Shown here: piece after piece, positions 5,992 to 44,115 of the stretch
Position numbering within the stretch: the first letter of the stretch is position 1
Layout: every line of letters starts with the position of its first letter
Source: Azolla caroliniana
Taxonomy: Eukaryota > Plantae > Polypodiophyta
Direction of reading: 5' to 3'
DNA: 64,000 bases
Assembly: GCA_043228905.1 (NCBI GenBank)
Contig: JBHGNT010000008.1
Location: 2,542,001-2,606,000, forward strand
Position numbers and translations under genes: made by a program
The notes under the pieces: model-generated
Seen by the model: the letters and a program-made list of their open reading frames with translations, nothing else
Told to the model about the DNA's origin: nothing
Databases searched by the model: none

Positions 5992-6205
5992 CAAAGGTAA
6001 CAAATAACATTAACCCAACTATGAATCAAAGGTAACAAATAACAGTAACCCAACTATGAATCAAAGGTAAGAAATAACATTAAATCACCTATGAACCAAA
6101 GCTAACAAATAACATTAAATCAACTATGAACCAAAGGTAACAAACAACATTAAATCAAATTGAAGTAAAGGTAAGAAATAACTAAATAAACTATGAATCA
6201 AAGGT
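5992..6205. repeat. ~35-bp minisatellite, about 6 copies
   Basis: Unit CAAAGGTAACAAATAACATTAA(C/A)(C/T)CAACTATGAA(T/C). Confidence 0.85.
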
Positions 6206-8047: not shown

Positions 8048-8105
8048 TGTACATACATACATACATACATACATACATACATACATACATACATACATAC
8101 ATGCA

Positions 8106-8138
<33 letters not shown>
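8048..8138. repeat. (TACA)n and (TA)n microsatellites
   Basis: Read directly. Confidence 0.9.
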
Positions 8139-8140
<2 letters not shown>

Positions 8141-8244
8141 ATGTGTAAGCATATATATGTGTCAATTTTATTGATGTGGATGTGCCTCTCTGATCTCATA
8201 CATACCATATATGTATGTGTGTATGTGAGAGCTTCTCTCTTAGA

Positions 8245-15591: not shown

Positions 15592-15625
<34 letters not shown>

Positions 15626-16523
15626 CGTCAATAAAAACTACATAGCTTTGTGAGCAAACCTCTATACCCAGAAGGCTTACCTTTATGCCCCATGTACCAG
15701 GAAATTCAATTTTAAGAACAGTTTACATTCAAGTAATCATACTATTTACATGCAAGTACATGATTCTGGGCATAATATATTTTACATCCAAAAGAATCTT
15801 TTTACCTGAAAAGATGCTTGTGAGCCACATTAGCAGCAAGAAGTGATGCAACACTGGGTTGTTCAACATGGTGAAGGACTACCTTCTTTACGAGTTGGTT
15901 TGTTCTTATACAGAAGGTATAATTGTTCACATATTTGAAAGGGTATTATTTGTATGGATAATCCTAATTGATCTGAGATATAAGACAGGGTTGTGGAGCA
16001 AGGCCCTAATATTTGAGGGTTTTTATCAAACTCATCAAGGGGTCTCATTGAATACCATTTCCTGCACATTATATGAAGCAAAAAATGACACTTTATAGAA
16101 TAAGCATGATGTAACATTCGTATTAGTGAGTCGAAGTAAGTAATCAAGATAAGACTAAATTAGATACAAATAAAATTACAGTGCATGATGTCATTAGTAT
16201 TTACATGAGTGAGCGGCCTTTAAATAGGTCTAGAACTTGTTGTCTATATTAAGGAACCCTATCTAAATTAATCTAGCAGTAGATTTGTGGGCTTTGTTGT
16301 AGGAGCATAGGAAGGTTTATGATCATAGTGGAAAATTACATCAGTCTATCCTAACTAGATTATCCTGACATGTACATGCTGTATTTTATATTTAAAAACC
16401 TGTCTAAAGTCATTGTTTGAATATTAGAGAGTTTCGAATGTAAAAATAAAGAGAACCCCAAAAAATAAATGAAAAAAACAAAATAAGCAGAAATTCAGAA
16501 CGTTCTAGATTTCAAACCCTTAC

Positions 16524-18164
16524 CTGATCACAGATGGGACAATAATTGCTCCTTTCCATCCATTCATAGATACAACCAAGATGGAAATGATGACCACACT
16601 GGGTACTTATTTTCGGATTCTCCTTTGTATAACCTGTCAGATAATTGTTTTACAACCGCATTATCCTCATAAATTATTTCTCAACAATAAAAGTTCAAAC
16701 CTTGCACAAATAAGCACAGAAAGCTATGAATCAGCTTCACACAGAAATAGATAAACATAAGATAATTCTCCGGGGAATTGCAAAGTCATCTATCTGTTCT
16801 ATACAAATTAAAATTGACTGAAATCCTATTCTCTGGGAGGATGAAGAGACAAGTTATCATATATAATGTGTGTTTTATTTTGATCGTATATAGTTAAGTA
16901 TATGTTGGCATAGTCATATCTATGATCAAGGGAGACAGATATAGAGATAACCATATCTCAGAGAAGAAGACACAAGAGACCACAAGTTTTTGAGTTGTTA
17001 GGGATGCATCATGTAGCAAAATGAATTAAAACATTGAAATAAACTAACATACCATCAAGACATGTTGGACAAACATCCTCATCTTCCCCAGACCACATTA
17101 GGGGCTCCACTCGTCCCATTGGTGTTGCTGATTGCTGTTTTTTATCGGGTGAGTCAGTCTTGTACCCTTGAGGCTCATCGTCATGATCTGCAACATTTCT
17201 TCTTTCTGCAGTTCTAATTAACTCACCAGCATCAATGTTGCTTTGCCATAAAGGTTCTGATTCTTCGCTATCCAACTGGCTTATACCTACTTTCTCACGC
17301 CCTGATACTGATCCATCTCTTTGTAACCGTATATATCTCCGATCAACATCATCGGGATATGGCCTTAAGAGAGGTCTGTATGTATCTGGAAAAGTATCAC
17401 CTGTTGTGGCCACCAACAGACCCGTTGAAGAGGGAGTTGCAATAGTTTGTATCGCAGAGACCAATTCATGACCATTAGAAGGGTGGAATAAAGCACCATA
17501 CTGTAGTCAGCAGAATATTTATTAAATGAAGTGCCATGTCAGTTATTCATGCATTTATTGACATCTACGTATTTGCAGCTCTCTCATTGACCATAACTAA
17601 TTGGTGTACTCATTGACATAGAACCTTTTCTGTGAAGATTATGTTGTCATAAACACAAATGAGCACAACCTACCGAAGGTACTCAAATCAATTATTTGGG
17701 TTGTTTAAACCAAGTAAGAGTAGATGCAGCTGCGGATTGACAAGCAATCCAACTCAGCGTTTATATAGTTGTGATAGGATCATGAAATAAATGCAATTTA
17801 TTTTTTAAAATGCACAGACATTAAAGGAATTTTAAGAAATTGGAATATTTGAAATAAATTTTACTTAGTTGTAATTCAAAGGTCTTCATGTAGGCAACTT
17901 AGTCAACAAATATTACTCGACGTATAAGCATTCATAAAAACAATCGGCATCAACACAGTTCATACAGCTTAGAACGCAGTACTGTTTTAACCAGGCCATC
18001 TTACATTGAATGTTAGAACCAATTTATTGGAAAGAATTTACCATCCTCATAAAAACATGCAGGCTGCGCCGAATGCAAAAGCAATGGCAATTTATCGATT
18101 CTGTTGGGGATGTTGTAAACTCAGCAATGTCTTCCCTCCTTGGGCAGCAACATAAAGCTCCCAT
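16524..18164 (-). CDS. RING-H2 E3 ubiquitin ligase with N-terminal myristoylation/palmitoylation motif; exons 18164-18042, 17500-17053, 16633-16524; last exon not resolved
   Basis: Starts MGALCCCP; conserved PDTYRP..RP.P.D motif; C3H2C3 RING EDEDVCPTCLDGYTKENPKISTQCGHHFHLGCIYEWMERSNYCPIC assembled across phase-compatible GT-AG introns. Confidence 0.9.
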
Positions 18165-20890: not shown

Positions 20891-22374
20891 CCTGGGTTCC
20901 ATAAGTCATATATTGAATTCTAAGTGAATTCTACCTATCTTCCTTCCCCTTGTGGACTGATTCTAGAAATTTGGGGAAATAATAAAAATACGTAGGGTGT
21001 TTTGGCTTACTCCCGAATGCCCTAGCTCCATCCTTGTCCCTCTCATGCATTGATTCATTCTATTCTCCCTTCTATATCACCTTTCGTGTGTTGATCGAGG
21101 ACATTGAAAATAGAAGTTCAGGGTTAATTGAACATTGAATAAAAAAAGGAGAACATGTTTCCTCAAGTGACAAGAATATTTGAACAACTAATTATGGAAT
21201 GCCCCGAATGTGAGGACATTATACATGAATTATAGGAGATCATACTAGGTTTTATTGGCTTTCGGGAAAGTCTAACAAGGACAAAATCATTGTTGACAAG
21301 ATTGGGCATATTTTGCTTTTCTCATCTACTCGTCCACATAGCCAATTGTCATATAAATCCCAAAGAGTGAATTGTGAAAACAAACTTAGTTTTTTGTTTT
21401 TTATTTTCACACATACATGCAACTCGAGGAGAGTGCTTTGTAACGATTGATCGGTTCTATGGATCATGTTGGCCTCCCTTTATGTCAACATATCATCGTT
21501 GTCACCTCTCTTTGCAATGTGCAATTAATACGTGATTCTTGATGCTTGAGAATCTTGCTAATGAACATTATATCTAATAGATTGATGTGTGTGGGATGTT
21601 GCAACAAGCAATATTCAGTTCGCGAGTTTGAAACTCAAACTCCTTCAAAAAATCAAAAACTCGAATCAAACCCGTCTACGAAACCATTTAAGAGACTATC
21701 AAACCTGAGTTGTTTAAAAGTAGACTTTGTTGAAGCACTACTATTATTACACACCCCACCCAATTATAGGTTTATTTGACAACAACTACAAAATATCCCA
21801 TTGATGCAAGGTCCTTTACATCGACAAACATAAGAGCAATAATGGGTTGATTGGTGTTTATGGGATTGAATGCCATTTTTACAAGTGACTACTAATCTTG
21901 TATCATTTTTCTGTTGAGTCTCTTTGATGGCTATCATCTAAGGCTGAATAAGAGTGTATAACTTTGATTACGATGTCGTGAAGATTTTCGGCAATAGTGT
22001 GAAAATCCGATAAAACGTACGAAATCGAGTATGAATCACATAATACAATAATTGTGAAGATAACATTTTTAATATCTAAGTACAAAATGATGGAGGTTTC
22101 GAATGCACTTTATTACACGAGAAATGGACAACTAAATGTCAAGATATGAGGGTATAAAGTTTGTGAAAAGAAAAGAGAAAATTGTGAGATATCCCACATA
22201 GGCACGACAAATACGACTCTCATCATATATAAGGTGGAGCAAAAGATATTATCTTTGTGTCTATGTGTGGAGCATAGAGAGTTCAAGGTAACTTGAACTA
22301 AGAGTGGAGGTGGGCTAGCTACTCGTAAAGGGTTTTGGCCAACCAAAACCGGACCGGCGATGGAGACGGTGAAC

Positions 22375-22709
22375 CGACGGCATCCGGCGAGGCACCGGTA
22401 ACCGACGGCATCCGGAGAAGCACCGGTAACCGACGGCATCCGATGACGGCACCGGCATCCGGCGAGACATCGGTAACCGACGGCATCCGGCGACGGCACC
22501 AGCATCCGGAGAAGCACCGGTAACCGACGACATCCGGCGACGGCACCGGCATCCGGCGAGACATCGGTAACCGACGGCATCCGGCGACGGCACCGGCATC
22601 CGGCGAGACACCGGTAACCGACGGCATCCGGCGAGGCACCGGTAACCGACGGCATCTGGCGAGGCACCGGCATCCGGCGAGGCACCGGTAACCGACGGCA
22701 TCCGGCGAC
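22375..22709. repeat. GC/CpG-rich minisatellite built from CCGGTAACCGACGGCATCCGGCGAGGCA and CGGCACCGGCATCCGGCGA modules
   Basis: Read directly; it explains the overlapping repetitive ORFs at 22113-22814. Confidence 0.9.
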
Positions 22710-27551: not shown

Positions 27552-29937
27552 ATGGAAGGAGGTGTGAGCGGCTTCCCAGGCATGACAGTTCTAAACTCAC
27601 AGAACTATGCAGACTGGAAGATAAAGATGGAGGACCTTCTCATAGTCAAGGACTTGTACGAGCCAGTCGACAGAGCAGATATACCAAGGGGGGTATTGGA
27701 GTCGGATTGGAAACTTCTTAACAGAAAGGTGGTGGCCACCATCTGACAATGCGTCGACGTAAGTGTCTTGCAACATGTGGCGAACGACACAAATGCACAC
27801 GAGATGTGGCAAAAGTTGTCGGGTCTATATGAGAGGAAGAACGCGCTCAATAGAACCTCACTGATGAGAAAGATCGTACGGCTGAAATACAGGGACGGTG
27901 AGAGCATTGTCGAACACATCAACACATTCATGGGGTATGTAAATCAACTTGTTGCAACCAAGTTTCCCCTGGATGATGCGATGGAGGCCATCCTACTAAT
28001 GTGCACACTGCCGGATAGCTGGGAGAACTTGGTGGTCACTCTCAGCACCTCTTGTCAAGAAGAGAACTTGTCTTTACAAACCGTAAATACAAGCATCCTA
28101 AATGAGGAGGCAAGGAGGAAGGACAAAGGAGTCCTGTCCTAGTTGGAGTCGAATGTTACACAACATTCGGACAGAGGAAGGAATCAGTAAAGAAGTCCAC
28201 CAAGGAGAGAAAAGTCCCAAGCCAGATCGAAGTCCAGAGGTAAGCTAGTATGCTTTTATTGTGGTAAGCCTAGACACTTCTAGAAGGACTGCCGACACAT
28301 GAGAAAAGACAAGGGTGTCGGAAACAATGTCGAACCCAAGAAGATTCCTGATGAGAAGAACACTTCTGCCATTGCTACGAGCAATGAAGAACTATTGTTC
28401 ATATGTGAACAGACAAGCACAAATCTTGCAAGTGAAGAATGCGCTTGGGTGATCGATTACGGGGCATCGTTCCACATAACTCTGTCGAGAGAGTATTTCT
28501 TGACTTACATAGTCAGAGCTCACGATTATGTGAAAATGGGTGATAGTGGAGAGTGCAAGATAGCCAGAGTTGGAAGTGTCTGCTTGACGACGTCGATAGG
28601 GTGTCGACTGACTCTGAAGGATGTTCAACACGTCCCCGATATTAGATTGAATCTGATATCAACTGGAAGGTTAGATGACGAAGGCTATAGTGGTAGCTTT
28701 TGGAATGGTAAGTGGAAGTTTTGCCGAGGAAATCTTATAGTGGCCTGAGCACAAAAAGAAGACACATTATATATGATGCATGCCCGATTGTGCAAATCAG
28801 ATGTAAATGTGGCAGCCGACTCAGCAGGAGAGAGATGGCATAAGAGGCTAGGCCACATGAATGAGAAAGGAATGCACCTGCTAGCCGACCAAAAGCTTCT
28901 ACCAGAAGTCAAGGGAGTGCACCTGGAGAAGTGCATCGACTGCTTGGTCAGAAAGTAGAACAGATCAACATTCCACACAAGACCACCAAGAAGAAGAGAA
29001 GTTGCATTGGAACTAGTACACACGGATGTGTGTTATGTAGATGCTCCATCGCATCAAGGTGGACAATACTTTGTGATGTTCATCGACGACTATAGTCGGA
29101 AGACATGGGTCGTCGTACTGAAGTCGAAGGATCAAATACTGTCGGTTTTCAAGGATTTCCAGGCTAGAGCTGAATGAGAGTCGGGTCGGAAGTTGAAGGT
29201 TGTTCGAACCGACAACGATGGTGAGTATAGAGGGCAATTTGAGGAATACTGCATGTGCCAAGGTATTTAGATCGAATACACAGTGCCAAAGACCCCAGAG
29301 TTGAATGGGCTTGTAGAGAGGATGAATCGAACAATCATGGAGACGGTAAGGAGCATGCTCTCTCATGCAAAACTGTTGAAATCCTATTGGGCTGAGGCGA
29401 TGTACACAATTGTTTATATGATCAACAAGTCTCCCTTAGTACCATTAAAGGGTGATGTCCTACAGAGAGTGTGGACAGGGAAGGATGTCTCCTACCAACA
29501 CTTGAGGGTGTTCGGATGTTTGGGGTATATGCATGTACCGAAGGATCAGAGGTCAAAGCTCGACAGTAAGTCGAAGGCATGCATATTCATGGGATACTTG
29601 GAAGAAGAGTTCGGTTATAGGCTATGGGATTTGGTCGACAAGAAGGTAGTGAGAAGTCGGGACGTAGTCTTTCTTGAAGATAAGACGATTGAAGACTGGA
29701 AGCAACAGAAGCGGATACGACTCCCCAGTCAACCCCGACTATCGTCGATCTAAGGTTAAGTGAACCAACAACGTCGGCTGTTCGGAGACGGCCAATCGAC
29801 ACAGCCGAATCCGAGTCGGTTGACTCAGAGAGACCGACCGACTGTGAGTCATAGTCGGTAGAGTTGCTAAGGTCAATTGAAGAGTATGAGTTGGAGTCGT
29901 CCAATCTGGAGATGCCGATTGACGTGCAGGAACCCGA
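27552..29937 (+). pseudogene. Copia gag-protease-integrase, with stops
   Basis: NYADWKIKMEDLL, zinc knuckle CFYCGK.RHF.KDC, WVIDYGASFH, WHKRLGHM, TPELNGLVERMNRT, FGCLGY; several in-frame stops. Confidence 0.92.
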
Positions 29938-31081
29938 AACACATTCGCGTTCACAAGTGGAAGGATTGTGCATTCCATTTGTAGAATCTTCTTGAAACTA
30001 TTCAAATATACCCTCTCAACAAAAATTGGATACACTAGTATCACATGTTCCACAACTTGATTAGAATTTGCAAATATAAAAATACATGATAGGTCTACGA
30101 GTGGAGATCATTAGAAATCATGCAAGTTTGGACGTGTTGATAAGTTAATGTAGGCATAATAAAGTTCAACAATGGCTCAATATGTCACTAATGTGCGGCA
30201 TGGGAAACACTAAGTTAAAGACTTATATTAATTTGGTAAGTTTTTTTTTTTCAAAGTAAAGCTACTTTCCCATTAGTTAGGAAGGGAATTTGGTAAGTTT
30301 TACAAAAATATGAGGTGTACTTGTATCCATACTAATAAAATGAGTTATAATTTATACTTTGACCCATACGTGCATGTATATAATAGTGGACAATGTAGGA
30401 TAGTGCACCTTAGGATAATGTGATTGGAATAACTAACTTATTAAAGTATTCAATACTTGTATTTAAAGTTGATCTAATCTATTCCTCAGTTTGTTCGTAT
30501 GAGATCAAACCATATGTATATAATTATGGACAATGTAAGACAGTGAACTTTAGGATAATGTGGTGGAAATAACAAACCTATTAAGGCTTTCATACTTGTA
30601 TTTAAAATTGATCTACTCTATTGCTTAGGTGATTCACACAGGATCAAACTCCGAACGATAACACTAGTGGAACTACAAGCGTATAAAAACATGCGGATAA
30701 CGCTACTGGAACCATTATCAACACACTACACAATCTAAGCAGCAATGGAATAGAAACATAATAGTTTTAACAATAGAAGACAAAGATCCATAATAACAAC
30801 ATGGACAGTCATGGCAACAATTCTACGACCATGTTATGTTAAGGTAAACTTGGACCAAAATCAGCCTCAATTTAAACTAATTCATGTTTCTCTAGAAATT
30901 TGGTAGTCAACTATGCACGCGGTGAAACCAATGTCATAAGTCTACTAACGAAGTATATAAAAATAGAATTGAAACATATAGAAGATTATAAAGAATAGAA
31001 TCCACCAAGTAAAACCCAAAATTTGTATTAATAATGTGAAATCCAAACATATCGTCAATGTCATTCTCTTCATAGAGTCTA

Positions 31082-34000
31082 TTACATAGCAATCAATTCA
31101 TCAATGTCATTTTCTTCATCATCCTGTGTAGAAGTCTCTTCGGCTATACGTGCATTGGCTTCCCCTGTTAGCTGAGCCAACGAAATATCTTCTATAAGCT
31201 CATCAGCAAGCTCTATTAGCTCCCCCGGTTCCCCGGCTAATGGAGGAATAGGCTCTCGTGAAGCATGTTGAAACCTTTTTGTATCAGCGAGGTTCTTTGC
31301 ACCAACCTCCTCGTCTCGGTTTGGGCACTCCCACAAAGCCTTAATCCTCATGTTTATAAATATAACTTGCTCCTCGTCCTTCTCCAATGCAACTGTGTTT
31401 CTAAAGAGCTTCAATGCACATGCAGACGTCGTTCCTGTGAAGAAAGTAAGAAGAAGAATTAGTTCTCAAACAAAAAAGATTCGGTATTGGTTATCTCAAG
31501 ATCGTTACCCTAGTTCGAGGAATACCTGTGCCAGAAAAGAGATCTAATATCCAGTCTCCTTCGATAGAAAACATCTCGATCAAGCGCATCATAAGTCGTT
31601 GAGGTTTTTGGTATGGGTTGACAAGTCCCCGTTCTATCGTGGTGACATGTCGCAATTTCCGTGTCACTGTTGGATATACCAATAGATTTGAACCTCCCAC
31701 TTCATTAGAATGCTCCTTGATTCTTTGTTTCTTAATTTCATCGAAGTAGCCAACTGTGATGTATTCAATGGCATTAACGAACTGAAAGGTTGGCCCTCTA
31801 TTTACATTGGTTTTTATCCTATAAAAAATAATACATTGAGTTAAGAATAGATTGAACAATCTTAAGAAATGCAATATAGTGAATGAGACCTATAAATAAT
31901 CCTTACCATGTAAGGTTCTCGATGCCATGGCAACGAGAACTCAAAGCTTGAGCTACCGAGTACCCTTGGTCCATACTATGAAAGACAACTATTCTCCACA
32001 AGGATGCAGTTGTTAGCTCAGCAAAATCCTTGACCATCTTCTCCAACTGTTTAAAACTAAACGGTTCATCGTTGTATGATGACCCAACCATTCAAAATCC
32101 GTAAGGAATATCTGCAATCATTAGCGTATATTCCTTCTTTGGAACCTTTTGGATCATGTCAACGACATCGCCGCAAACCACATTGTAGTAATGATCTCTC
32201 GTAATATCTTTTTTGTGGCTAAATTTTTTAAAGGAGCCATCTTCCTCCATTTCGTATGCCTTGACTAAGCGACGATCCTTTTCTTTTCTGGCTCTCTCAA
32301 GATGTGCAAGGAAGGATGTCGGGAAATCGTTTATATCCTTAACTTCTCCTTGTTTCTTGCCACGACATGGTTTCTAATAGAAGCAATAGGACATCAAGTT
32401 TTATTATACAAGCTCTACATATGATGAAAGCGTAATGAAAAACCACCAATACTAACCCAATCCTTGAATGCAATAAAATACTCCGATAACGCCTTATATG
32501 AAGACGTTAGAGGATAATCCTCGGTCACTTGTTCCCAAGTTATACATCCAAGTTGTTTCATCAAAACTTCTTGGATCTTCATGTACACCTTATGATTGTG
32601 AAATTAGAAAATGAGATTAGAACTTTGAATTGCACCATATAGACTTCAATATCAGTATTTGAAAGACTTACTTATTGAACTTAGTGACCATTTTTTCAAG
32701 GCTTCAATCTTTGGCCACAACCCTTGACAAAACAGACACAAGAAGCTGCTCATCCTTAATACCTTGCATCACTCTCCACAGAGACAACTTCATGTCGTCA
32801 ACCGCTTCTTCAATTGTCAAGTCAATTTTCTTGGCCGCTTGTGATTGAGGGTCAACCTTACATTTTTTTTGTCGTTGACCCTTGACCTCCTTATTCTCCC
32901 ACATTGAGAAGATTTGATCTTGTAGGTTCCATACTTCTCCATCTCTAAAGGCCAGTTGAAACCAAGACTCATACTTTCGAAGACCATCGGACTTAACATT
33001 ATCATCTACCACAATGCCAACTTCATGCAAGCATTGACGTCGTAGGCCTGGATGTGGCTTCACACCAAACTTTTGTTTGACGTCCAAATACTCATGATGG
33101 AAGAACCTTATACGCTCAATCAACGACATTTTTTGCCTATAGTCATTATCATTATTGTGGTCCCATGCCAACAGCTTCGCCTCTTCAGTTGTGAGACCCA
33201 TGTAAATTTTGCACTCGGCATACTTGAAGAAGAAAGTTGTTGGATGTTCTCTCACAAGTTGCCGACGTGCCTCCGCTGAATGCGATCCACCAATGACAAA
33301 GTAATTATATTGATCATGCTTTCTTATATCAAAATCTTCAATGGTTTCACATTCTTCAGGATCCACCAGAACAGTAAAAGGCACCACATTGGCATGAGGA
33401 TTAATTGTCATTTTTATCTTGAGATTTTGAACATGCATGCGGTGTGGCTCTCTAATCTCCAGTGGTCTTCGTCCTGTTTTTTCATCAATAGGGGGCCGAT
33501 GGATGTGTCTTATAGGAAAATTAAACACTTGTCCTTTCCTTACCAATTTACGTTGCATTAACTCTCTCCGTATCTTATTCTGCTCGGATGACAACACACC
33601 CGATGCCAGCTTAGCTCCTGGCATCCCCTTAGTGTCCTCATCTTCATTTTCACTTGATGAGTCGGAGTCCGACATTTTGGTGGTCTTCTTTTTTGGTGGT
33701 CTTGATTGTACTTTAGATGCCCTTTTTGTGGCCTTCACTAGGGAGGGCAATGGCTCCCTTAGAGTTACATGGCCTTGTATATAAGGCCTCAAAGTAACAA
33801 TAAGGTTTTGTGAGCTTTCAAGATCTTTTTTGAAAGCTTCTGGCCCACAAGATTCCTTTGCTAGAAGATCTTCAGAAAGGAACACTTTACGTACGCCCTT
33901 AGAGCACTCTATCATTACAAGTATGTTGGCTGAATCTGCATCTTCGTAGTCAAATTGTAGAATATGGTCATACATAAATGGGGTTTCATTTTCAAGCTGC

Positions 34001-35372
34001 CCCTCGCCCTTCTTCTTGGCTGTATACAATACGACTTTTTTCTTGGTGTCGACGTATTGCATACACCATTCCTTGTTCATTAGATCACGGTCAAGAAGGT
34101 CTTCACCTCCAGTAGTTGTTACTAGTTTCTTTTGGCTAACCTCAATGTGTGATTGAGATTTTGTCTCCTCGTTGAAGAGAAGCTTTTTTCCTCTCTTCAT
34201 GGTCTTGGGAGCTATTAGGGTCTGTGTTTCAATTGGAGAACCCTGTATGCGGAGCTTTATCTTCTTCACAGGTTGGTCCGACAAGTTCTCAAACGACCTA
34301 TTTAAGAAAGGACATAAGTTAGGTAGTCACGTAGATTAAGATTGTATATTAAAAGTCAAATAATTAGATGAAGAAATAAACTAGCAGGCGATTTGCGGTA
34401 AACTATAAAAACCAATCATGCATTGATTGTACATGGTAGTCCTATATTCAGAAATCTATTCTAGTAAGGGCTATTCAACTTAGAAAATATATATCTTAAT
34501 AAGTATACAAGGATATATATTGTCTTGAAGGGCACATATGGCTTATATTGATTCCATATCCATATTGTAGAGAATTTGCATATGATAGACTTGAATTTGG
34601 TATCCTAAAGGTAATTTGTGGGTTATTTTGTACTAATTTAAGCTATACTAGGTCATAAAACCTTTATAATTAAGGCCCCTATTTTTTACAAAATAAGGCA
34701 AATCACCCTAAAAAAAGACTGATTTTGACAGAAAAGTTTGATATCTTTTCACACAATACTAAGTTGTTGCCCCAAAGACACAATATTCCTCTTTCAAGTT
34801 CTTGTTTTATACAGGGACTCGATACGTCGTATCGAGTTCATGTATAAAACACAAACATAATCCAGGAGCTTGATACGTTGTATCGAGTTCCTTTGTAAAA
34901 GAGGTACATAACACAGGAACTCGATACGTTGTATCGAGTTCCTGTATAAAACACACATATTATACAGGAACTCGATACGGTGTATCGAGTTCCTGTATAA
35001 AACACAAATATTATACATGAACTCGATACGGCGTATCGAGTTCCTGTTTAAAACGCAAACATAATACAGGAACTCGATACGACGTATTTTAAAACACAAA
35101 CAAAATAGAGGAACTTGATACGACGTATCGAGTTCCTGTTTAAAACAAAAACTTTAAAGAGGAACTCGATACGTCGTATCGAGTTCCTGTATAAAACCTA
35201 AACATCACACAAGAACTCGATACGTCGTATCGAGTTCATGTATATTGTTTGTGTTTTATACAGGAACTCGTTACGGCGTATCGAGTTCTTGATGCTAAAA
35301 CATATTTACAAAAATGTCCACAGTGTTAGAGGCTTACCTGGAGTCCTTGCACTCGATTTTCTTTGAAGACAT
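31082..35372 (-). pseudogene. ParB/Srx-like domain fused to beta-class N6-adenine/N4-cytosine DNA methyltransferase; exons 35372-35338, 34297-32672, 32595-32457, 32373-31907, 31818-31526, 31434-31082 (971 codons)
   Basis: ParB-like YFVIGGSHSAEARRQL...AWDHN; MTase motifs in beta order: VVCGDVVDMIQKVP..YTLMIADIPY (motif IV, 32101-32112), WIKTN, NPYQKPQRLMMRLIEMFSIEGDWILDLFSGTGTTSACALKLFRNTVALE (motif I). All intron phases are compatible. Lesions: TGA at 32704-32706 and 32092-32094, and an AG->AA acceptor at 32596. Confidence 0.88.
34812..35291. repeat. Array of ten 31-bp palindromes at 51-bp period inside intron 1 of the ParB-MTase gene
   Basis: Consensus CAGGAACTCGATACG-N-CGTATCGAGTTCCTG; starts 34812, 34863, 34914, 34965, 35016, 35067 (truncated), 35108, 35159, 35210, 35261; ~20-bp A-tract spacers. 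Confidence 0.95.
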
Positions 35373-35470
35373 GGTTGATATTTGTTGATTTTTAGGCGGA
35401 GATCTCGCTATCGTGCTTCGTGCTCTGTGTGCTCTTGTGTTTCGTGTGAGTGAAATATGATGAGGTCTTC

Positions 35471-36120
35471 CTATTTATAGGGATTGACCATAGTGGTTAA
35501 AGTAACCACAATCAGCTTAACCAGGGTTGGCAAGCATGAGGTTACTTAGTTAGTAACCACAGTCACATTAACCTAAGTAACTTGTGATTGCATTAATGAT
35601 TACAAAGTCAAACTAACATATTGATGAATATTTTATAGTCAAAATAACTTACAATGACTTTGAAGGTCATGAAGGAAACAATGATAGAGGTTCATGAATG
35701 AACCAATGATTGATTACTCAAAGCAACATTTTTATGACTCTTAATTGCTTTGTATTGAAGATGTGGGCATGAATGAACCAATGATTGAAAAGTCTTATAT
35801 TTAAAATGGTGGGCATTAATGAACCAATGACTGAGAAGTTTTATATTAAATATGGGCGCCATTAATTAACCAATGATTTTAACTTTAATCCAACATATAT
35901 ATGGCTTGGTAATGATTGTAATTATATTATACTTGATTAACCTTCATATAGACTAGTTTATGTAATTATTAATATGTTAAATACAATAACTATATTAAAA
36001 ATAATATTTTTTACGCATTGTATTAATATAATATTAAATAATATAGACATTGTATTGAGGGAGCTTCTGTTTAGAGAGGAGTTTATGTTTAGAGAGGAGT
36101 ATATGTTTAGAGAGGAGCTT
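35471..36120. promoter_or_regulatory. Putative bidirectional promoter of the TIR element
   Basis: Minus-strand CTATAAATAG at 35471-35480, ~100 bp upstream of the MTase ATG; four AT(G/T)AAT(G/T)AACCAATGA CCAAT repeats (~35694-35876); three TGTTTAGAGAGGAG repeats (36068-36117) before the plus-strand ORF. Confidence 0.5.
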
Positions 36121-36180
36121 ATTAGTTTTTTGCCTTAGCCTAAGCACATAACTTAAAGAGCTCTGTCTAGACCTTAAGCC

Positions 36181-38119
36181 ATGAGTGAAGATTCACCGTT
36201 CTCGATTGAAGAATATTGTTTGTCGATAGACTCACCATTTTCTATTGAAGAATATTGTCTGTCGACAGACTCACCATATTCTATCGAAGAGTATTGTCTG
36301 AGCTCATCTTCACCTACAACGAATGTGAATAATGACACATGTGAAGAGTTCTCTATTGAAGAATACGACATTAATAAAGATACGGAGAATGAAGGTAGTG
36401 CCAATGAAACATCGAATATCATGGGCGATGGTCACAACAAAGAATTGGATAGTAACAAGGTTACACCAACTTCTATGCAGGAAGAGAAATCTGTAAGCCC
36501 TATGCATATTAGAAGAATCCCACGAAGAATTCGTCTATCTAGATTTAACTTGGTGACATCAGATAAACAGATTGGATTTGATGTCAAAAAAATATGATGT
36601 GCTCGTGGTTGTATGTCTATGATTGGAAAATCAAAGTTGCGAGAATTAAGGCGATACTATTTTTCGATGACTAGTGATGAGCAAGACACTTACCTCGGGT
36701 CACATATGCAACTAGTGTCTGACAAATGTACGGGGATCAAAGTATCATCCGAGTATTATATCTTCCATGCGCAACAGATCTGTAAAGTTGCATTCAAAAT
36801 TGCATTATGTGTTAGTAACATGCAGCTACATAGAGTACAACAACGTCTACTTAGCGGGGATCAGATGCTCAATTGTAAAGAGGTTCCAAGTATGAAAAGT
36901 GCAATTGGAAGACATGGTATTGGTTGGATGAAAACTTACTTTCAGTTAAATTGTGAAGTAATTCCCACTACATGTAGGATGCACCTTTTTGATAATTACA
37001 CACGTCGGGAAGTTTATGATGTCTATCGATCTGATATGGTGGGCTCACATAATAAGTCTGTCACATATAGCCAATTCACAAGATTATGGAGAGCTCGGTT
37101 TTCAAATGTTATCATTCCACATAAAGTACACATGGGGTATTGCTCCATTTGTGCAAATCTTTGGTTTAGGGTCAACCTTTGGTTGCTAGTTATTACTTTG
37201 TATGCCGAGTACAATTGTCCATGGAGCTAAGCAAATGCCAATTGAGAAGAAAGGACAGTTGCAGAGTGACTTGGTATCGGAACAAAAATGGTTATGGCTC
37301 CAAGCCTTAGAAGAAAAAAGAAAGCATGTTGAGGCCGCCAAGAAATATGCCGCACAACAAGACACGTCATGGTGGGATGTATTTTATAGTGATCAGAAAG
37401 GAATTATAGACAATTGTGTATTTGGTGATAATTGGAATATGGAAACGCCATTCACATGGTCGCTGCAACACGATCGTGTAAATAGTACTCTGGAGCAACT
37501 AGCAAATGCGATTAATGATAGTTTGGTCCATCCACAACAAAGAGACATTTATGTGGGACCAAGGATGACCAAAGCAGCCGAAGCTAGATGGCAAGGCAAT
37601 TTGCAAGAGCTCACGGCGAGGATGTTGATTGCAACGCCGACTGATGAGAATTCACATGGCCACCAATTTTGGGTTGGTAAAATTCTAGAAGTGTTAATGC
37701 ATGAAATAGAAAACGTTATCAAGTCTATAAACGTTCATTGGTACAACACTAGAAGTGCAAATGATTTTACAGGTAAGTATACATTGGAGATGATTGAATG
37801 CCCAACAAGAAGGGGAGGTAGGAAGAGGAAGCGAAACATTCGTAACACCTCTACCCTTGATATCTCTTATGTGGATATCATCGTGTACGACTTCACACTT
37901 ACAAAAGCCGGACGATTAAGGAAGTCAACAATAGATATAATAAAAGAAAAATTACCAGGTCTACAAGGTGGCTCAAGTCAAAGGCAAACGAGATCTGCTA
38001 CATATAATCTAGAGTCAAACCATTTGGTTTATGACGAAGATAATGCACTAATTGGTACATCCGAGGATGACGAGGAGGAATCGTCATTGTATATTAGTTA
38101 TAGTAGTGATTCTCCGTAA
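36181..38119 (+). pseudogene. Transposase-like gene of the TIR element, internally deleted
   Basis: N-terminal C..GC...LR..YF....EQD.YL / QIC..AF..AL.VS / W...YF..NCE..P....HL....R.EVY..Y / FTRLW...F.NV.IP....G.CSICANL; in-frame TGA at 36595-36597; frame switch near 37160 where a catalytic core would be expected; C-terminal FWVGKI...VHWY...F.LT..GRL domain. Family call is by recollection of pattern. Confidence 0.62.
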
Positions 38120-38414
38120 AGGAATGATCATGAATGTATTTTTGGCTATTAAGTGTAAATACATTCCGCTTGTAACAAATCGAGTAATATTAAAGCATGT
38201 GTTTTGAATTCTTATGATTTCTAAAAAATGCACTGATTGGTACATCCGAGGATGACGAGGAGGAATCGTCATTGTATATTAGTTATAGTAGTGATTCTCC
38301 GTAAAGGAATGATCATGAATGTATTTTTGGCTATTAAGTGTAAATACATTCCGCTTGTAACAAATCGAGTAATATTAAAGCATGTGTTTTGAATTCTTAT
38401 GATTTCTAAAAAAT
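38042..38414. repeat. 185-bp direct tandem duplication of the end and 3' UTR of the transposase-like ORF
   Basis: TGCACT(A/G)ATTGGTACATCCGAGG... at 38044 and 38229, nearly identical. Confidence 0.93.
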
Positions 38415-39089
38415 CGTTTCTTATAAAATAACATTGGTTGTAAAGTTTGTGATATAAATTGAGAATGTAACTTTTTGAAATTCCTCTTTTTTTAGTTACT
38501 TCTAAATCACGAAAATAGTGGATTTTTAACCTTTTTCATAGTATGTTTGAACATGTATGATACTAGTATCAATGTGTTTTGTAAAATCATTGGAAAAGCC
38601 CTAAAATCAACCAAAATTTTCCTTATCCTTCCACTTGTGAACGCGAACGTGTTCCGAGCGAAGAGAAGAGTTGGCAAAGACATTCGAAAGAGAGGCAACA
38701 ACGAGTGGAAGGAGATACCCACTCAGAGAAAGGAAAGCACTGACAACATATGGCAGTCAATACATCCTCTTGACTGATGAAGGTGAACCAGAGTGCTATT
38801 GTCATAACTAGACTCGAACCCATAACCTTTTGTTACACGGGTCGAGACTTTACCATTAGGTTATGAATTGTAATTTGAAGGATATTATTTTCATTTAGGT
38901 TTTATTGGGAAATTGATGTATATTCCAGATTTCTCTGGAACATTCTAGAAACTTCAGGAGTATTCCTGAAGACACTATAAAAGGAGGCGCAAGGCATTAG
39001 TTCGAACCAAATCGGTTCAACGCCAGTCTTAAGCCTTCTAACCACTGTTGTATATCTTCCTTCATATAATACATATATCTTTCGCATCA

Positions 39090-39127
<38 letters not shown>

Positions 39128-39361
39128 ACTCATTCCTTCTCTCAAAGTTCGACACCTCTCATAGTACTAATCCTTCTCTGTCTTAGTACTATTCCCCGAC
39201 AATAGTACTAATCCTTCTTTTAGTACTAATTCCTTCTCTGCCTTAATAGAGTTCCTGACAGTTTGAACCGATTTCTCGGTGCCTGTCTGGTCTTTTCTCT
39301 CCCTCTTCCTTCTGTCTCCCTCCTTTCCTATTAATCTCTTATTTCCCTTTTCCTTCATCCC

Positions 39362-40531
39362 ATGGCCACCGTTAGCGCTGAAGAGTATCAATCCGTTTTC
39401 TCGGAATTTCAATGCTTGAAAGAGAAGTTTCATGCTTTGGAACAAGAAAATCAACGCTTGTTGGGGGATCTTCAGCAAATTTCCTTAGAAAAGCAGCAAA
39501 CGCAACAACAGCATGGGGAACTTGCGTTACGCGTGCAACAACTCGAAGCAACCATCGTAGCAATGCAACAACAAGGGCACGGAGCACAAGGGATTCATAA
39601 AGAACCCAAGATTGGCCTTCCCACGAAGTTCGATGGAACGCGATCGCAGTTTAGAGGGTTTCTTAACCAGGTACGGTTAGTTATTCAAATGCATCCGTCC
39701 CGATATCCCACCGATGCATCACGAGTGGGTTTAGTAGGCACGTTGTTAAATGGCTCAGCATTAGCATGGTTCACTCCGCTACTAGAAAAGGAATCTCCAG
39801 TACTAAATAATTTTGAAGAATTCATAAGTGAGTTTAAAGCATGTTTTGGAGATACTGACAGCATAAGGACTGCAATCAACAAAATCCGGCGATTACGCCA
39901 AGGTGACCGTCCAGCCTCCGCATATGCTGCAGATTTCCGCCTACTCGCCGCCGATATCCCCTGGGATGATCAAGCATTGATGGAGCAGTTCCGCTATGGT
40001 CTACGCAACGATGTCAAGGATTTACTCTTGACTTTCCCTGAAGAGCCAAAATCATTAACAAAAGCAATCAGTCGAGCGGTCAGATGTGACAACCGCCTCT
40101 TCGAGCGACGTTCGGAACGACAATTTCAGATGCCGAGGGCAAGATCCGAGCCTACCTATGCCTCAGTGGTAGCGAAACCTTTTCAAAGGGAGTCACATAA
40201 TGCGCCTCCAGTAAGTACTCCAACTCCAATGGAAATTGACACTACACGTCGTCGTGGGCCGCTATCGGAGGAGGAAAAGCAACGACGCCGAACAAACCGA
40301 TTATGCCTTTATTGCGGTGGACCAGGGCATATCGCGATAAACTGTCCCCATAGACCAAGAAGGCAGGTAAACCAAGTCGTTGTTAGTTCTGACTATACTA
40401 AACCCGAGTCTATTTCAGTAGGAATCTCTGATAGTCCTCATAGTCATAATAGTCCTAATAGTACTAATAGTCCGAATCTCGCAAACAAATTTGATGTCCT
40501 TAGCCAATTAGAAGAAGAGTTAAACGACTAA
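39362..40531 (+). CDS. gag: Gypsy Gag (coiled coil, capsid, CCHC knuckle)
   Basis: KIGLPTKFDGTRSQFRGFLNQV, LRQG..ASAYAADF, PTPMEID, CLYCGGPGHIAINC. Confidence 0.95.
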   Translation: MATVSAEEYQSVFSEFQCLKEKFHALEQENQRLLGDLQQISLEKQQTQQQHGELALRVQQLEATIVAMQQQGHGAQGIHKEPKIGLPTKFDGTRSQFRGFLNQVRLVIQMHPSRYPTDASRVGLVGTLLNGSALAWFTPLLEKESPVLNNFEEFISEFKACFGDTDSIRTAINKIRRLRQGDRPASAYAADFRLLAADIPWDDQALMEQFRYGLRNDVKDLLLTFPEEPKSLTKAISRAVRCDNRLFERRSERQFQMPRARSEPTYASVVAKPFQRESHNAPPVSTPTPMEIDTTRRRGPLSEEEKQRRRTNRLCLYCGGPGHIAINCPHRPRRQVNQVVVSSDYTKPESISVGISDSPHSHNSPNSTNSPNLANKFDVLSQLEEELND

Positions 40532-43500
40532 GTCCAGCCAAAATAGGAGCCGTTTGGTTGGACAGCCCTAGATCTGTGCAGCCCATTAGTGGTTCCATTC
40601 CCTCTAAGCAAGTTAGTGATGTGTTCGTAGCCCAAGTAGCAGTTAGTACTAAAAGTACCCCTCCAGTACATACCTTAGCCCTTCTAGATTCCGGAGCTAA
40701 TTCTTGCTTCATGGATAGGAATTTTGCCCGAGCTCATCAGATATCTCTCAGAAAGCTCCCATGTCCAGCCTCAGTAGTAGTCATTGATGGTCGTCCCATT
40801 GCTTCTGGTAATATCATAGAAGAGTCGGAACCCGTTAATATTGTCCTAGATAACTTAACATGTGTAGTATCATTTAATATTATTAGTATTCCAGAACATC
40901 CCATAGTTTTAGGATTACCATGGTTCGAGTTACATAACCCAGACATAGATTGGAGGACAAGGGAAATCCGGTTGCGACAAACCCAAGGATCTACCCAGAA
41001 GGTTGCAACCATTTCGCTACGTCAGTTGCGTGAGGAAGGGCGCAAGGAGGAAATGTTTCTCTTCGCAATATCAGTACAACCCTCCAGCACCACCAAAGAG
41101 GAGTCCACCGTTCAACTTCCCGAGAAGTATCATCAGTATGCTGATGTGTTCGATAAAGTACAAGCCAACACACTTCCTCATCATCGGCCGTACGATTGCG
41201 CCATCGACTTACAACCGGGAAAAGAGCCGCCATGGGGGCCGATCTACAATTTGTCACCAACCGAGCTAGAAGTCCTTCGAGCCTATATAGAGGAGAATTT
41301 GGAGAACGGTTTCATTCGGCATTCGAAATCTCCAGCCGGCGCACCCATTTTCTTCGTCAAGAAAAAAGATGGCTCGCTTCGACTCGTTGTAGATTACCGT
41401 GGCTTGAATAAGGTCACAGTAAGAAATAGGTATGCTCTTCCCCTTATCTCAAGTCTTTTAGAACGGATCAACGGTGCCAGGTTCTTCACGAAGATCGACT
41501 TACGAGGAGCCTATAACCTCGTACGGATCCGACCAGGAGATGAATGGAAGACCGCGTTTCGCACCAGATATGGGCACTTCGAGTATACGGTCATGCCGTT
41601 CGGACTCACTAATGCGCCGGCAGTCTTCCAGCACATGGCGAATGATATATTTCGAGATCTCTTGGATGATTTTTTGATCATCTATTTGGATGATCTACTG
41701 GTTTATTCAAAGACCCAAGAAGAACATGATTCTCATGTACTATTAGTACTAAAACGACTTCGAGAACATGGTCTGTATGCAAAGTTAGAGAAATGTAGTT
41801 TCGGGTGCAACCAAGTGGAGTTTCTCGGCTATGTCATCTCCTCAGAAGGCATATCTATGGACCCAGCCAAGGTCAAAACGGTGATAGAATGGCACACTCC
41901 GCGTTCGGTGCGGGATGTGCAATGCTTCCTAGGCTTTGCAAATTTTTACCGGAAGTTCATACAAAATTACTCAAAAATTGTGCTGCCTCTCACACAGCTC
42001 ACCAGGAAGGGACAATCATTCATTTGGTCTAAAGAGACGGACATGGCTTTCGAGAGTCTTAAGAAGGCGTTTACATCAGCTCCAATTTTAGGTCATGTGG
42101 ATCCGGAAAAACCATTCATTATCGAAGCTGACGCATCGGATTTCGCATTGGGGAGCATTCTGTCACAACAAGGTAACGACGAGAAGCTACATCCTGTGGC
42201 TTTCCACTCCCGTAAGTTTGACGCCGCCGAAATCAACTACGAAATTCATGATAAAGAGCTATTAGCAATAGTTGATTCTTTTATGCAATGGAGGCATTTC
42301 CTGGAGGGATCTCCTCATCAGGTCACTGTATTCAGTGACCACAAGAACCTTGCCTACTTTCAAGATGCTCGTGTATTGAATCGACGTCAAGCTCGGTGGG
42401 CCCACTTCCTCACACGCTTCGACTTCAAAATTACATATCGTCCGGGGAAGCACCAAGGGAAGGCAGATGCATTATCACGGCGTTCGTATCTAACACCACG
42501 TCCCGGTGAGCCAGCTTTCGATAACCAGAAGCAAGTAATCTTGGGTCCAGCACGACTGCAAGCAGCACAGGTCTTTGACATGCCCGTGGATTCCGACATT
42601 ACCAATACTATACGTGAGAACTTGAAGACTGACGCTTTCGCCCAAGCTATACTAGCACAAATTGACCCCTCTCGAGCGTCATGTTCACAATCACAATCAC
42701 CAGGTACGGATTATCGGCAATTCAAATACTGTGATGGATTACTCTTCTTTAAAGAACTTTTGTATGTTCCTAATGGTTCTTGCCGCCTTCGAGTAGTACA
42801 AAACTGCCATGACACATATACAGCAGGACATTTTGGTAGTACTAAAACATTAGATTTAGTACAACGATCATTCTGGTGGCCCCGTATGCGACAATTTGTC
42901 GAAGATTTTGTTCGGACTTGCGATACATGCTGTAGAGCGAAAATGCCAAGACATCATCCATATGGTTTATTAGAACCATTACCAATTCCAAGCAAGCCAT
43001 GGCAATCCATTGCTCTTGACTTCATTACAGATCTTCCAGTCTCTAAGGGATTCAGTGCGATTCTCACAGTGGTGGATCGATATACGAAGATGGCTCATTT
43101 CTTACCATGTACTAAAGAAATATCTAGTGAAGACACCGCCGAAATTGTCATGCGGGAAGTATGTCGGCATCATGGACTCCCTGATAATATCATCAACGAT
43201 CGTGGACCCCAGTTTGTGTCAAAATTCTGGAAGCACCTTTTTAAAATGCTGAAGGTCACTTGTAACCTCTCCTCCGGCTACCACCCACAAACCGACGGTC
43301 AAGCCGAACGAACAAATCAAACACTGGAGCAGTATCTGCGGTGCTTTCTCAACTATCATCAGAATGACTGGGCAGATATTCTTCAGTTCGCCGAATTTGC
43401 CTATAATAACGCTATCCACGCATCGACTAAAGTCACGCCATTCTACGCTTATACAGGATATCATCCCCGGTGGTGTGTCCTTGAAACCCCAGAAGTGTCC

Positions 43501-44115
43501 ACAAATCCTTGCGCGGAGGATCGTTTGGAGCGGTTACACAAGATACAAGCGGATTTATCTACTCAACTCCAGCAAGCTCAACAATCACACAAGGACTACG
43601 CAGATCGTCATCGACTTCCATCCAGTTTTAACATTGGAGATCGGGTGTGGCTGCTACGACGACACATCAAGACTACTCGCCCATGTGAGAAGTTGGATTA
43701 TCGGCGATTAGGTCCTTTCCGTATTATCGGGAAGATTAATGATGTCGCTTTTCGTCTCGAGCTACCTCCGCAACTTCGGATACATCCGGTGTTTCATAGT
43801 TCTCTCCTCGAACCCTATCACGAGAGCACTATCCCAGGACGTACTATACAACCACCACCTCCTATCGAGCTCGAAGATGGACCTGAGTATGAGGTCGCTG
43901 CCATCCTCGATTCCAAGATTGTTCGCAACAAGCTCTACTATCTAGTCGATTGGCTAGGATATAGTCCCAGCGAGCGTACTTGGGAACCGATCGAGAATGT
44001 GACCAATGCTCGTGCTCTTCTAGAAGACTTCCATCGACGATATCCCGAGAAACCGGGTCCTCAATCCAAAACGACTCGTGGAACTCGTCGTTTTAAAGGG
44101 GGGATAGTGTCATAA
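40519..44115 (+). CDS. pol: Gypsy Pol (protease, RT, RNase H, integrase, chromodomain) in the -1 frame relative to gag
   Basis: LLDSGA, YLDD, EADASD, HHCC-type zinc motif plus DDE integrase, GPF, chromodomain YEVAAILDSKIVRNKLYYLVDWLGY..SERTWEP; the frame is open from the slippery site at 40519. Confidence 0.94.
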   Translation, partial: VKRLSPAKIGAVWLDSPRSVQPISGSIPSKQVSDVFVAQVAVSTKSTPPVHTLALLDSGANSCFMDRNFARAHQISLRKLPCPASVVVIDGRPIASGNIIEESEPVNIVLDNLTCVVSFNIISIPEHPIVLGLPWFELHNPDIDWRTREIRLRQTQGSTQKVATISLRQLREEGRKEEMFLFAISVQPSSTTKEESTVQLPEKYHQYADVFDKVQANTLPHHRPYDCAIDLQPGKEPPWGPIYNLSPTELEVLRAYIEENLENGFIRHSKSPAGAPIFFVKKKDGSLRLVVDYRGLNKVTVRNRYALPLISSLLERINGARFFTKIDLRGAYNLVRIRPGDEWKTAFRTRYGHFEYTVMPFGLTNAPAVFQHMANDIFRDLLDDFLIIYLDDLLVYSKTQEEHDSHVLLVLKRLREHGLYAKLEKCSFGCNQVEFLGYVISSEGISMDPAKVKTVIEWHTPRSVRDVQCFLGFANFYRKFIQNYSKIVLPLTQLTRKGQSFIWSKETDMAFESLKKAFTSAPILGHVDPEKPFIIEADASDFALGSILSQQGNDEKLHPVAFHSRKFDAAEINYEIHDKELLAIVDSFMQWRHFLEGSPHQVTVFSDHKNLAYFQDARVLNRRQARWAHFLTRFDFKITYRPGKHQGKADALSRRSYLTPRPGEPAFDNQKQVILGPARLQAAQVFDMPVDSDITNTIRENLKTDAFAQAILAQIDPSRASCSQSQSPGTDYRQFKYCDGLLFFKELLYVPNGSCRLRVVQNCHDTYTAGHFGSTKTLDLVQRSFWWPRMRQFVEDFVRTCDTCCRAKMPRHHPYGLLEPLPIPSKPWQSIALDFITDLPVSKGFSAILTVVDRYTKMAHFLPCTKEISSEDTAEIVMREVCRHHGLPDNIINDRGPQFVSKFWKHLFKMLKVTCNLSSGYHPQTDGQAERTNQTLEQYLRCFLNYHQNDWADILQFAEFAYNNAIHASTKVTPFYAYTGYHPRWCVLETPEVSTNPCAEDRLERLHKIQADLSTQLQQAQQSHKDYADRHRLPSSFNIGDRVWLLRRHIKTTRPCEKLDYRRLGPFRIIGKINDVAFRLELPPQLRIHPVFHSSLLEPYHESTIPGRTIQPPPPIELEDGPEYEVAAILDSKIVRNKLYYLVDWLGYSPSERTWEPIENVTNARALLEDFHRRYPEKPGPQSKTTRGTRRFKGGIVS

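Follow-up and report, generated by a model that had tools for sequence, protein, structure and literature searches.

A dead Sola1-like transposon of Azolla caroliniana with a ParB-fold methyltransferase gene and a palindrome array in its predicted first intron

Among described systems, the nearest parallel to the Azolla caroliniana transposon analysed here is Sola1-1_Ec32 of the brown alga Ectocarpus, a Sola-type element with a 4-bp TSD that tends to end in A and with an accessory gene, on the strand opposite to the transposase, that joins a ParB-like domain and an N4C/N6A methyltransferase in one protein (PMC12477816). Its termini read AACCG as against AACAC in the Azolla element, those of Sola2-1_Ec32 being different again (GGCGG); it measures 21.5 kb with 282-bp TIRs, whereas members of the plant family have ~7.6-9.4 kb and TIRs of 29-37 bp; its accessory protein has 1104 amino acids against 970 predicted here, the two being compared by description; and its host is a brown alga, whereas the plant family occurs in land plants and Chara (PMC12477816). 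Self-modification has already been hypothesised for Sola1-1_Ec32, so that the suggestion in an earlier note on this DNA that the architecture might be undescribed falls away; a target array, a selection test and a motif analysis are reported here for the plant family and are not part of the available portion of the Sola1-1_Ec32 account (PMC12477816). The two-gene ParB-methyltransferase transposon architecture is not new, and the plant family represents, in land plants, a kind of element that is known but uncharacterised.

The Plavaka (EnSpm) elements of red algae, with the accessory genes PAG2 and PAG3, likewise combine a ParB-like domain and adjacent inverted-repeat arrays with a PF01555 methylase, and self-binding together with self-modification has been proposed for them; according to the available part of that source they differ in having ParB-2OG oxygenase and methylase-SET fusions, encoded by separate genes, and a transposase of another superfamily (10.1101/2025.02.11.637652). 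A literature search found no test of the transposon-borne ParB-methyltransferases of algae. The VANDAL elements of Arabidopsis, which belong to the Mutator superfamily, serve as a functional model only. They too have a transposon accessory protein, VANC, whose target motifs are arranged in tandem in non-coding sequence, but VANC causes 5mC loss and its targets vary widely, whereas the palindrome core described here is conserved (PMC5735166). The enzyme itself resembles M.RsrI, M.MboIIA, CcrM and phage PF01555 proteins in fold, in QKP and in having motif IV before motif I, but identity is ~23-32% and the plant family has DIPY, introns and a ParB fusion; no close phage donor was found and, phage methylases being only ~23-32% identical, none is named. 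Prokaryote-type beta-class enzymes of eukaryotes include N4CMT of bdelloids, which has a chromodomain (PMC8885841), and DN4MT1 of Marchantia (10.1101/2021.02.12.428880), yet both are encoded by host genes, have SPPY/TSPPY and write 4mC and, in the accessible text of both sources, neither is described as transposon cargo. A link to these two enzymes finds no support in this analysis, as motif IV differs and neither is among the named matches.

The window, a stretch of 64,000 nucleotides of A. caroliniana DNA, holds a copy of this family between TIRs that are identical at 28/29 bases. The left TIR (29938..29966, forward strand) starts with AACAC and is recognised by TIR matches in related loci, while the right TIR (38625..38653, reverse strand) pairs with it. 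CCGA stands on the outer side of each, as a left TSD copy at 29934..29937 and a right copy adjoining the right TIR at 38654..38657 (both forward strand), and the empty site, a joint of 29933 with 38654 that shares four letters, was found in 4/4 DNA runs. When the Copia flanks are translated separately, the left one stops at ...IDVQEP and the right one resumes in matching phase at ...YILLTDEGEPECY, so that a single Copia frame was split by the insertion. The earlier note had proposed both a DNA transposon with 29-bp TIRs and a Copia frame restored by removal of the 4-bp TSD, and both proposals hold, although the frame also has an older stop of its own, upstream. TIR matches with at most six mismatches occur at 10/80 related loci. 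AACAC termini are found in the window copy, in 10 loci and in the relative L034, and the base beside the left-type TIR is A in 6/9 loci and in the window copy, a weak bias. No TSD was obtained when one was looked for in the L034 flanks, which we take to be a collapsed assembly. CACTA and Chapaev elements have CAC termini, and either identity is rejected since the termini here are AAC.

The transposase gene (36181..38119, forward strand) is broken by a stop at 36595-36597 and by the loss, between 37161 and 37181, of residues ~345-620, which hold the DDD core (DUF7869). Deleted with them are IDGMD, LDN and GHTHDHID, presumably the Sola acidic catalytic triad, which are present in 9/9 full-length transposase relatives. 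The element is a Sola1-like DNA transposon, as placed by its 4-bp TSD, its AAC termini and the triad of its relatives. The C-terminal domain of the transposase has matches only among unnamed eukaryotic clusters, PHROGs yielded none for the protein, and the transposase core has a dN/dS of 0.073 (Nei-Gojobori; 4 of 45 pairs unsaturated). Repeat analysis of the window also revealed a 185-bp tandem duplication (38042..38411) that overlies the 3' end of the gene.

The accessory gene is predicted to comprise six exons, all on the reverse strand. The 35-nt exon 1 (35338..35372, with ATG at 35372) is preceded in the window copy by a TATA-like box at 35479, and a similar 35-nt exon lies 5' of the first palindrome in 7/11 relatives examined. 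Exon 2 (32672..34297), delimited by fold and by relatives, encodes an N-terminal region, an acidic linker and ParB/Srx-fold and helical domains (about 33618-32707); exon 3 (32457..32595), whose junctions are common to relatives, encodes a helical linker; and exon 4 (31907..32373), again placed by the junctions of relatives, carries motif IV (DIPY) and a linker. Exon 5 (31526..31818) contains NPYQKP together with motif I (DLFSGTG, which an intron interrupts), and exon 6 (31082..31434), whose GT-AG junction is kept in 16/16 relatives, contains the end of the SAM-binding region, an acidic tail and the stop. Indeed, four GT-AG introns are conserved in 16/16 relatives, 14 of which are open through to the natural stop. 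The exon model follows this conservation; in two runs presumed to be RNA, which gave 2 and 0 contigs, no splice joint was seen, and this says nothing about expression. The window copy has an in-frame TGA in exon 2 (32704-32706), a premature TGA in exon 4 (32092-32094), where 44/45 motif-bearing loci have an Arg codon, and an exon 3 acceptor changed from AG to AA; at 32596 the reads have the base typical of the family. For exon 2 a net frameshift was considered and rejected, the defect there being the in-frame stop. The copy is dead: its transposase is without a catalytic core and its accessory gene is interrupted by two stops and has lost a splice acceptor. The head-to-head layout of two divergent genes reported earlier is therefore correct, but both genes are broken in the window copy.

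Relatives of the element place the accessory gene within the family as a whole. The earlier note had held that copies without the methyltransferase gene would mean capture, and that a dN/dS near 1 would count against its reading. The DUF7869 transposase is head-to-head with the accessory gene in 11/11 loci whose sequence extends 2800 bp or more upstream of the ParB core, so that every long-enough relative has both, and dN/dS by Nei-Gojobori on unsaturated pairs is 0.039 for the ParB core (26 of 703 pairs), 0.039 for the motif IV exon (52 of 595) and 0.062 for the motif I exon (41 of 496), values that come from sets in which most pairs are silent-site saturated and from contigs that are likely consensus-like, many of one assembly series. 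These per-exon values are used in place of whole-gene ones, for which just 2-21 of 91 pairs were usable. By this sequence comparison, the ParB-methyltransferase gene is carried as cargo throughout the family and is under purifying selection, and one-off gene capture is rejected on these grounds; bacterial contamination is rejected by the introns and the plant neighbours. Named homologues come from Chara, Riccia, Diphasiastrum, ferns and Ginkgo. In 4/4 DNA runs, thousands of divergent contigs cover 30/30 bins of the stretch, a depth that does not equal copy number.

ParB, as named earlier, is upheld by fold and not by Pfam, a search of the window ORFs having detected no ParB. The predicted model of the ParB region (pLDDT 76.5) has seven Foldseek matches with E up to 0.001, every one of them ParB or Noc (best E 1.5e-4), and in structure comparison PadC reaches Z 9.3 (rmsd 2.9 A over 99 residues), all five chains with Z of at least 8 being ParB/Srx-type and including the repressor KorB (Z 8.7). 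On the modelled structure, the ParB/Srx fold of the accessory protein is confirmed. The ParB arginine box for CTP is GxxRxxA; its place reads GGSHS(A/T)EA in 14/14 relatives, which departs from that pattern, and no ParA partner gene is present, as there are two genes only between the TIRs. Replacement of the arginine box and absence of ParA make CTP clamp loading doubtful. A search of viral contigs for a relative of the ParB core confirmed 0/26 pattern matches, and the core has no match in PHROGs.

Predicted intron 1 contains nine 17-bp palindromes TCGATAC-N3-GTATCGA and one half-deleted copy with a 51-bp period (34819..35284), as against 0.01 matches to TCGATRC-N3-GYATCGA expected by chance. 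The phased array noticed earlier in the methyltransferase intron is real and conserved, and behaves like a protein-binding site. The palindrome lies within the intron-1 zone of 20/24 loci with enough upstream DNA, at a density of 171 sites in 38 kb of this zone, the other 286 kb having 17. A 3-bp spacer separates the two halves of the palindrome in 146 cases, with at most one case at each other length, the bases of the variable position match in 134/147 sites, and copies are three, four, five or six DNA turns apart, varying by subfamily, only 2/150 spacings of up to 66 bp falling between whole helical turns. The fixed 3-bp spacer and whole-turn spacing suggest a protein-binding array. Simulation of the spacing gave 0/200,000 draws for 38 classes in 20 clusters, a result that treats the spacings as more independent than they are, the 51-bp unit being inherited; with only the four spacing classes counted, the chance is about 0.003-0.06 by our own arithmetic. 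It is probable that the accessory protein binds this array. The 199 palindrome sites include 93 mismatches, 39 of them CpG transitions and 24 other C>T/G>A changes; such 5mC-type decay implies that the genomic copies were 5mC-methylated there and that any protection is incomplete or short-lived at most.

The best explanation overall, a tentative one that is close to evenly balanced, is that the window holds a dead copy of a Sola1-like family whose ParB-methyltransferase binds its own intron array and marks the element. Intact members carry a six-exon gene for a protein with a ParB fold and a beta-class amino-methyltransferase. This protein would bind the palindromes that stand at helical intervals in the first intron of its gene and would put methyl-adenine on the DNA of the element, and this mark would help to keep both head-to-head promoters active. 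Should the protein be bound and active, the analogy with VANC tips slightly towards self-activation or anti-silencing as the effect. The array is, however, directly downstream of the accessory-gene TATA box and ~0.9 kb from the transposase start, and a first intron so placed is the usual position of an autoregulatory operator; with KorB among the fold matches and 5mC-type decay in the array copies, this fits a protein that binds and marks the array for feedback or timing, repressing both promoters or flagging transposition-competent copies, rather than for anti-silencing. We consider this unlikely, since repression alone needs no methyltransferase held at a dN/dS of about 0.04-0.06, and since VANC, the sole characterised plant precedent in the accessible account, binds tandem targets and removes silencing (PMC5735166).

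The marking proposed in the preferred reading concerns the methyltransferase domain. The ORF containing exon 5 matches PF01555 at 35.4 bits (cut-off 26.7; E 1.4e-8), in line with the earlier assignment, motif IV is N-terminal to motif I as in beta-class PF01555 enzymes, and a relative whose domain is intronless aligns structurally with PF01555 models at TM 0.82. The catalytic motif had been given as DPPY or SPPY, but reads DIPY at 43/45 loci, where the canonical form would be (D/N/S)PP(Y/F); a literature search found no paper on DIPY. DIPY, NPYQKP and DLFSGTGT are invariant across 14/14 spliced relatives, other streptophytes have DFPY, DLPY, DVPY or DAPY, and DLPY occurs in 2/6 phage genes examined, among the full-length ones. 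The methyltransferase is somewhat more likely active than not. That motif IV is non-canonical, with a second residue that varies among streptophytes, and that DAM domains carried by DIRS transposable elements are thought inactive (PMC4738411, as far as available), would suit a non-catalytic domain retained as a DNA- or SAM-binding aid to ParB array recognition; this is distinctly unlikely, given that the Asp, Pro and Tyr of motif IV, QKP and FxGxG are invariant in 14/14 relatives and that DLPY exists in full-length phage genes.

If the enzyme is active, its mark is quite likely to be 6mA rather than 4mC. Several CG sites fall in each palindrome (CpG o/e 2.07 in the array versus 0.62 in the window), the PF01555 fold has repeatedly changed target (PMC8885841) and Marchantia has 4mC at CG (10.1101/2021.02.12.428880), so 4mC written at these sites could block or compete with host CG methylation; but in the accessible sources SPPY or TSPPY is the motif of the known 4mC writers, whereas that of the accessory family begins with Asp, and M.RsrI, M.MboIIA and CcrM, the solved sequences nearest to the Ginkgo homologue, are adenine enzymes, which makes this very unlikely.

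Transposase, ParB core and palindrome class sort into the same three groups, which indicates shared descent only, not co-evolution, and does not single out the binder. Against the main reading, the transposase co-descends with the array and so could be its binder. It is nevertheless improbable, to the same degree as 4mC, that the transposase or a host factor binds the array, or that it positions nucleosomes, while the accessory protein acts elsewhere: A-rich tracts between the palindromes would likewise yield a 10-bp rhythm, but the motif is not in the TIRs and is scarce outside intron 1, and the red-algal elements, with a different transposase, also have inverted-repeat arrays beside the ParB gene in the available account (10.1101/2025.02.11.637652).

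The preferred reading, binding and marking by the accessory protein, can be extended to a streptophyte Sola1 6mA circuit, with cooperative loading on one face of the array, spreading and a 6mA shield against host 5mC silencing, an extension that we regard as doubtful. Also against the preferred reading, streptophytes are said to be without abundant 6mA (10.64898/2026.05.21.726589), so that it is not apparent which host factor would read the mark. The plant family is a compact test case for elements of this kind, having intact frames, a 17-bp candidate site at whole-turn spacing and many genomic copies. An active enzyme would write 6mA (or 4mC) in land plants, for which the reality of 6mA is contested, and would give transposons a second route to self-protection besides VANC. 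If the 6mA circuit were real, lineages from Chara through ferns to Ginkgo, which have lost the host 6mA system, would have retained a true, locus-restricted 6mA writer, and the circuit would provide a programmable self-targeting methylase.

The transposon is an insertion of 8716 bp (29938-38653) that has 29-bp terminal inverted repeats (TIRs) matching at 28 of 29 positions and the target-site duplication (TSD) CCGA on both sides. It interrupts a decayed Copia element whose flanks lie in a single reading phase, and the corresponding transposon-free site is present in all four DNA runs, so that the ends and the host frame described in the earlier note both hold. Across these four runs the stretch including the Copia flanks matched 2,551 to 17,332 contigs per run at 85-100% identity, figures that are not copy counts; with all 30 bins covered, repetition extends to every part of the element. 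The window represents nuclear DNA of a land plant: it carries a legume-lectin receptor kinase (2049-4139), an ORF of the DOPA 4,5-dioxygenase family (8245-8748) and an intronless PPR-E-DYW editing factor (10024-13227). A chromodomain-bearing, Tf2-like Gypsy element (39335-44115), in which gag and pol remain as long open frames, is nested in the same Copia, beginning near 38798, some 145 bp from the right TIR. Elsewhere, a G+C-rich tandem array with a 47-bp unit (22367-22708) overlaps two ORFs, the one scanned giving no Pfam match.

The transposase gene (36181-38119, forward strand) matches nine proteins of 905-932 amino acids at 67-85%, all of which contain the motifs IDGMD, LDN and GHTHDHID; DUF7869 was found in each of the three relatives scanned. 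Judged from its AACAC termini, 4-bp TSD and these transposase motifs, the element appears to fit Sola1 as exemplified by Sola1-1_Ec32 of Ectocarpus, which also has a 4-bp TSD but AACCG termini. The window copy has a private stop and lacks residues ~345-620, that is, the entire catalytic core. The C-terminal domain of the transposase (37600-37960) is conserved, and the ESM Atlas yields only unnamed animal clusters as matches (score 0.92).

The accessory gene has six exons on the reverse strand (35372-35338, 34297-32672, 32595-32457, 32373-31907, 31818-31526 and 31434-31082), totalling 2913 nt, or 970 codons plus a stop. When 16 of the 80 related loci were aligned, picked to cover the identity range, the GT and AG of the four 3′ introns were kept in all 16 and the natural stop was reached with an open frame in 14. 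Exon 1 (35 nt) is predicted, and 7 of 11 relatives show an exon of that length as well. In the window gene itself, stops interrupt the frame at 32704-32706 and 32092-32094, and the acceptor at 32596 is lost. Pfam detects no ParB domain in region 33618-32707; the region nevertheless folds like ParB/Srx, as the earlier note had proposed, all seven Foldseek matches at E ≤ 0.001 being ParB or Noc, and VIA-align giving Z scores of 9.3 to PadC and 8.7 to KorB. The C-terminal domain is, again as proposed, a beta-class amino-methyltransferase, in which DIPY, NPYQKP and DLFSGTGT are unchanged in all 14 spliced relatives. The N-terminal part of exon 2 (33619-34297), conserved among relatives (~27-71%) and with no Pfam match, could represent a further, third domain, for instance a chromatin reader. 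In a related DIPY subfamily from environmental data (P0045-P0052), a single unbroken frame encodes the entire methyltransferase domain, which is handy for expression. Another protein, P0144, joins a SAM domain to the ParB-like region.

Every one of the 11 loci whose sequence extends 2800 bp or more upstream of the ParB core has transposase and accessory gene head-to-head, which speaks against a one-off capture. These loci were found through that core, so the result means that the accessory gene travels with the transposase; carriage by every such transposase is not implied. On the unsaturated minority of pairs the dN/dS of the accessory gene is 0.039-0.062, as low as that of the transposase core (0.073) and not near 1, and among saturated pairs median pN is still 0.17-0.25. 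At one related locus (L032, 4033-5946) the 3′ two-thirds of a transposase shares the strand of the accessory gene and stands downstream of it, in contrast to the customary head-to-head order, owing to rearrangement or misassembly. Another (L034, 180-7773), complete at 7.6 kb, is bounded by 37-bp TIRs of its own (AACACCGG...) and has one strong palindrome instead of an array. A profile-free search returned 353 relatives up to E 0.001. The 30 proteins looked up by name, 28 among the 150 listed matches and 2 from another search, comprise 9 from Chara braunii, 4 from Riccia sorocarpa, 4 from Adiantum nelumboides, 2 from Ginkgo biloba and 11 environmental sequences, with none from flowering plants among the named matches; the Chara, Riccia and Ginkgo homologues are known here from their protein sequences. 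Diphasiastrum, the fern Ceratopteris and a second Adiantum species supply further relatives, and among named proteins the one from Ceratopteris is the best match to the accessory protein (57%).

The phased array noted earlier consists of nine palindromes (TCGATRC-N3-GYATCGA) within predicted intron 1, against 0.01 expected. The core CGATRC-N3-GYATCG recurs in the same zone of 20 of the 24 loci that have 1400 bp or more upstream, and there are 171 core sites in 38 kb of intron-1 zone versus 17 in 286 kb elsewhere, 10 of the latter forming one second array. This array (L016, ~4750-5650), whose palindromes belong to another class (CCGATGC/TCGATGC), lies after an accessory gene without its last exon and is probably a nested related element. 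The variants TCGATAC, TCGATGC and CCGATGC track the three main groups into which transposase and accessory protein each fall, the two palindrome halves co-vary in 134 of 147 sites, and 146 cases have a 3-bp spacer. Site-to-site spacings cluster at 30-33, 39-43, 49-54 and 63 bp, and of the 150 spacings no longer than 66 bp (33 sequences) only 2 fall between whole turns. Array unit length differs between subfamilies and helical phase is retained, which is the best evidence that a protein would occupy adjacent sites along a single face of the helix; the pattern does not single out the protein concerned.

The favoured proposal is that the array, which adjoins the two divergent promoters, is the likely binding site of the ParB-fold protein, and that the accessory methyltransferase would write a local 6mA mark favouring expression and transposition of the element. 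Feedback control is the first rival. Adenine is the predicted target because Asp is the first residue of motif IV and because of the nearest solved enzymes; the competing reading is 4mC writing. Against self-marking, DIPY is a non-canonical motif IV, and a non-catalytic methyltransferase domain is a further rival. Also against it, the CTP arginine box is absent from the accessory protein and 63 of 93 mismatches in array copies are of the 5mC-decay type; the array may instead be bound by something other than the accessory protein.

The architecture, once thought possibly undescribed, is already present in Sola1-1_Ec32, where a 1104-aa ParB-like plus N4C/N6A methyltransferase lies opposite the transposase (PMC12477816). 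ParB-linked adenine methylases are listed in chlorophytes, chytrids and haptophytes in PMC4738411, and PMC4455052 and PMC5751038 give classification context. Retrotransposon DAM enzymes are the subject of 10.64898/2026.05.21.726589, whose accessible text mentions neither ParB nor Sola; Sola is described as rare among active plant elements in the accessible text of PMC12973397, which does not mention 'fern'. No description of the phased site, or of this architecture from land plants, came up in the literature search, whose scope did not extend to Iyer et al. 2011, to Repbase reports, to subscription journals or to closed bioRxiv supplements (e.g., Bostrychia Supplemental Table 6), any of which could contain one. 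The feature is real, the window copy is dead and the family is living: the element belongs to a kind already known and represents it in land plants, adding a streptophyte range, data on selection and a candidate site that is both defined and helically phased.
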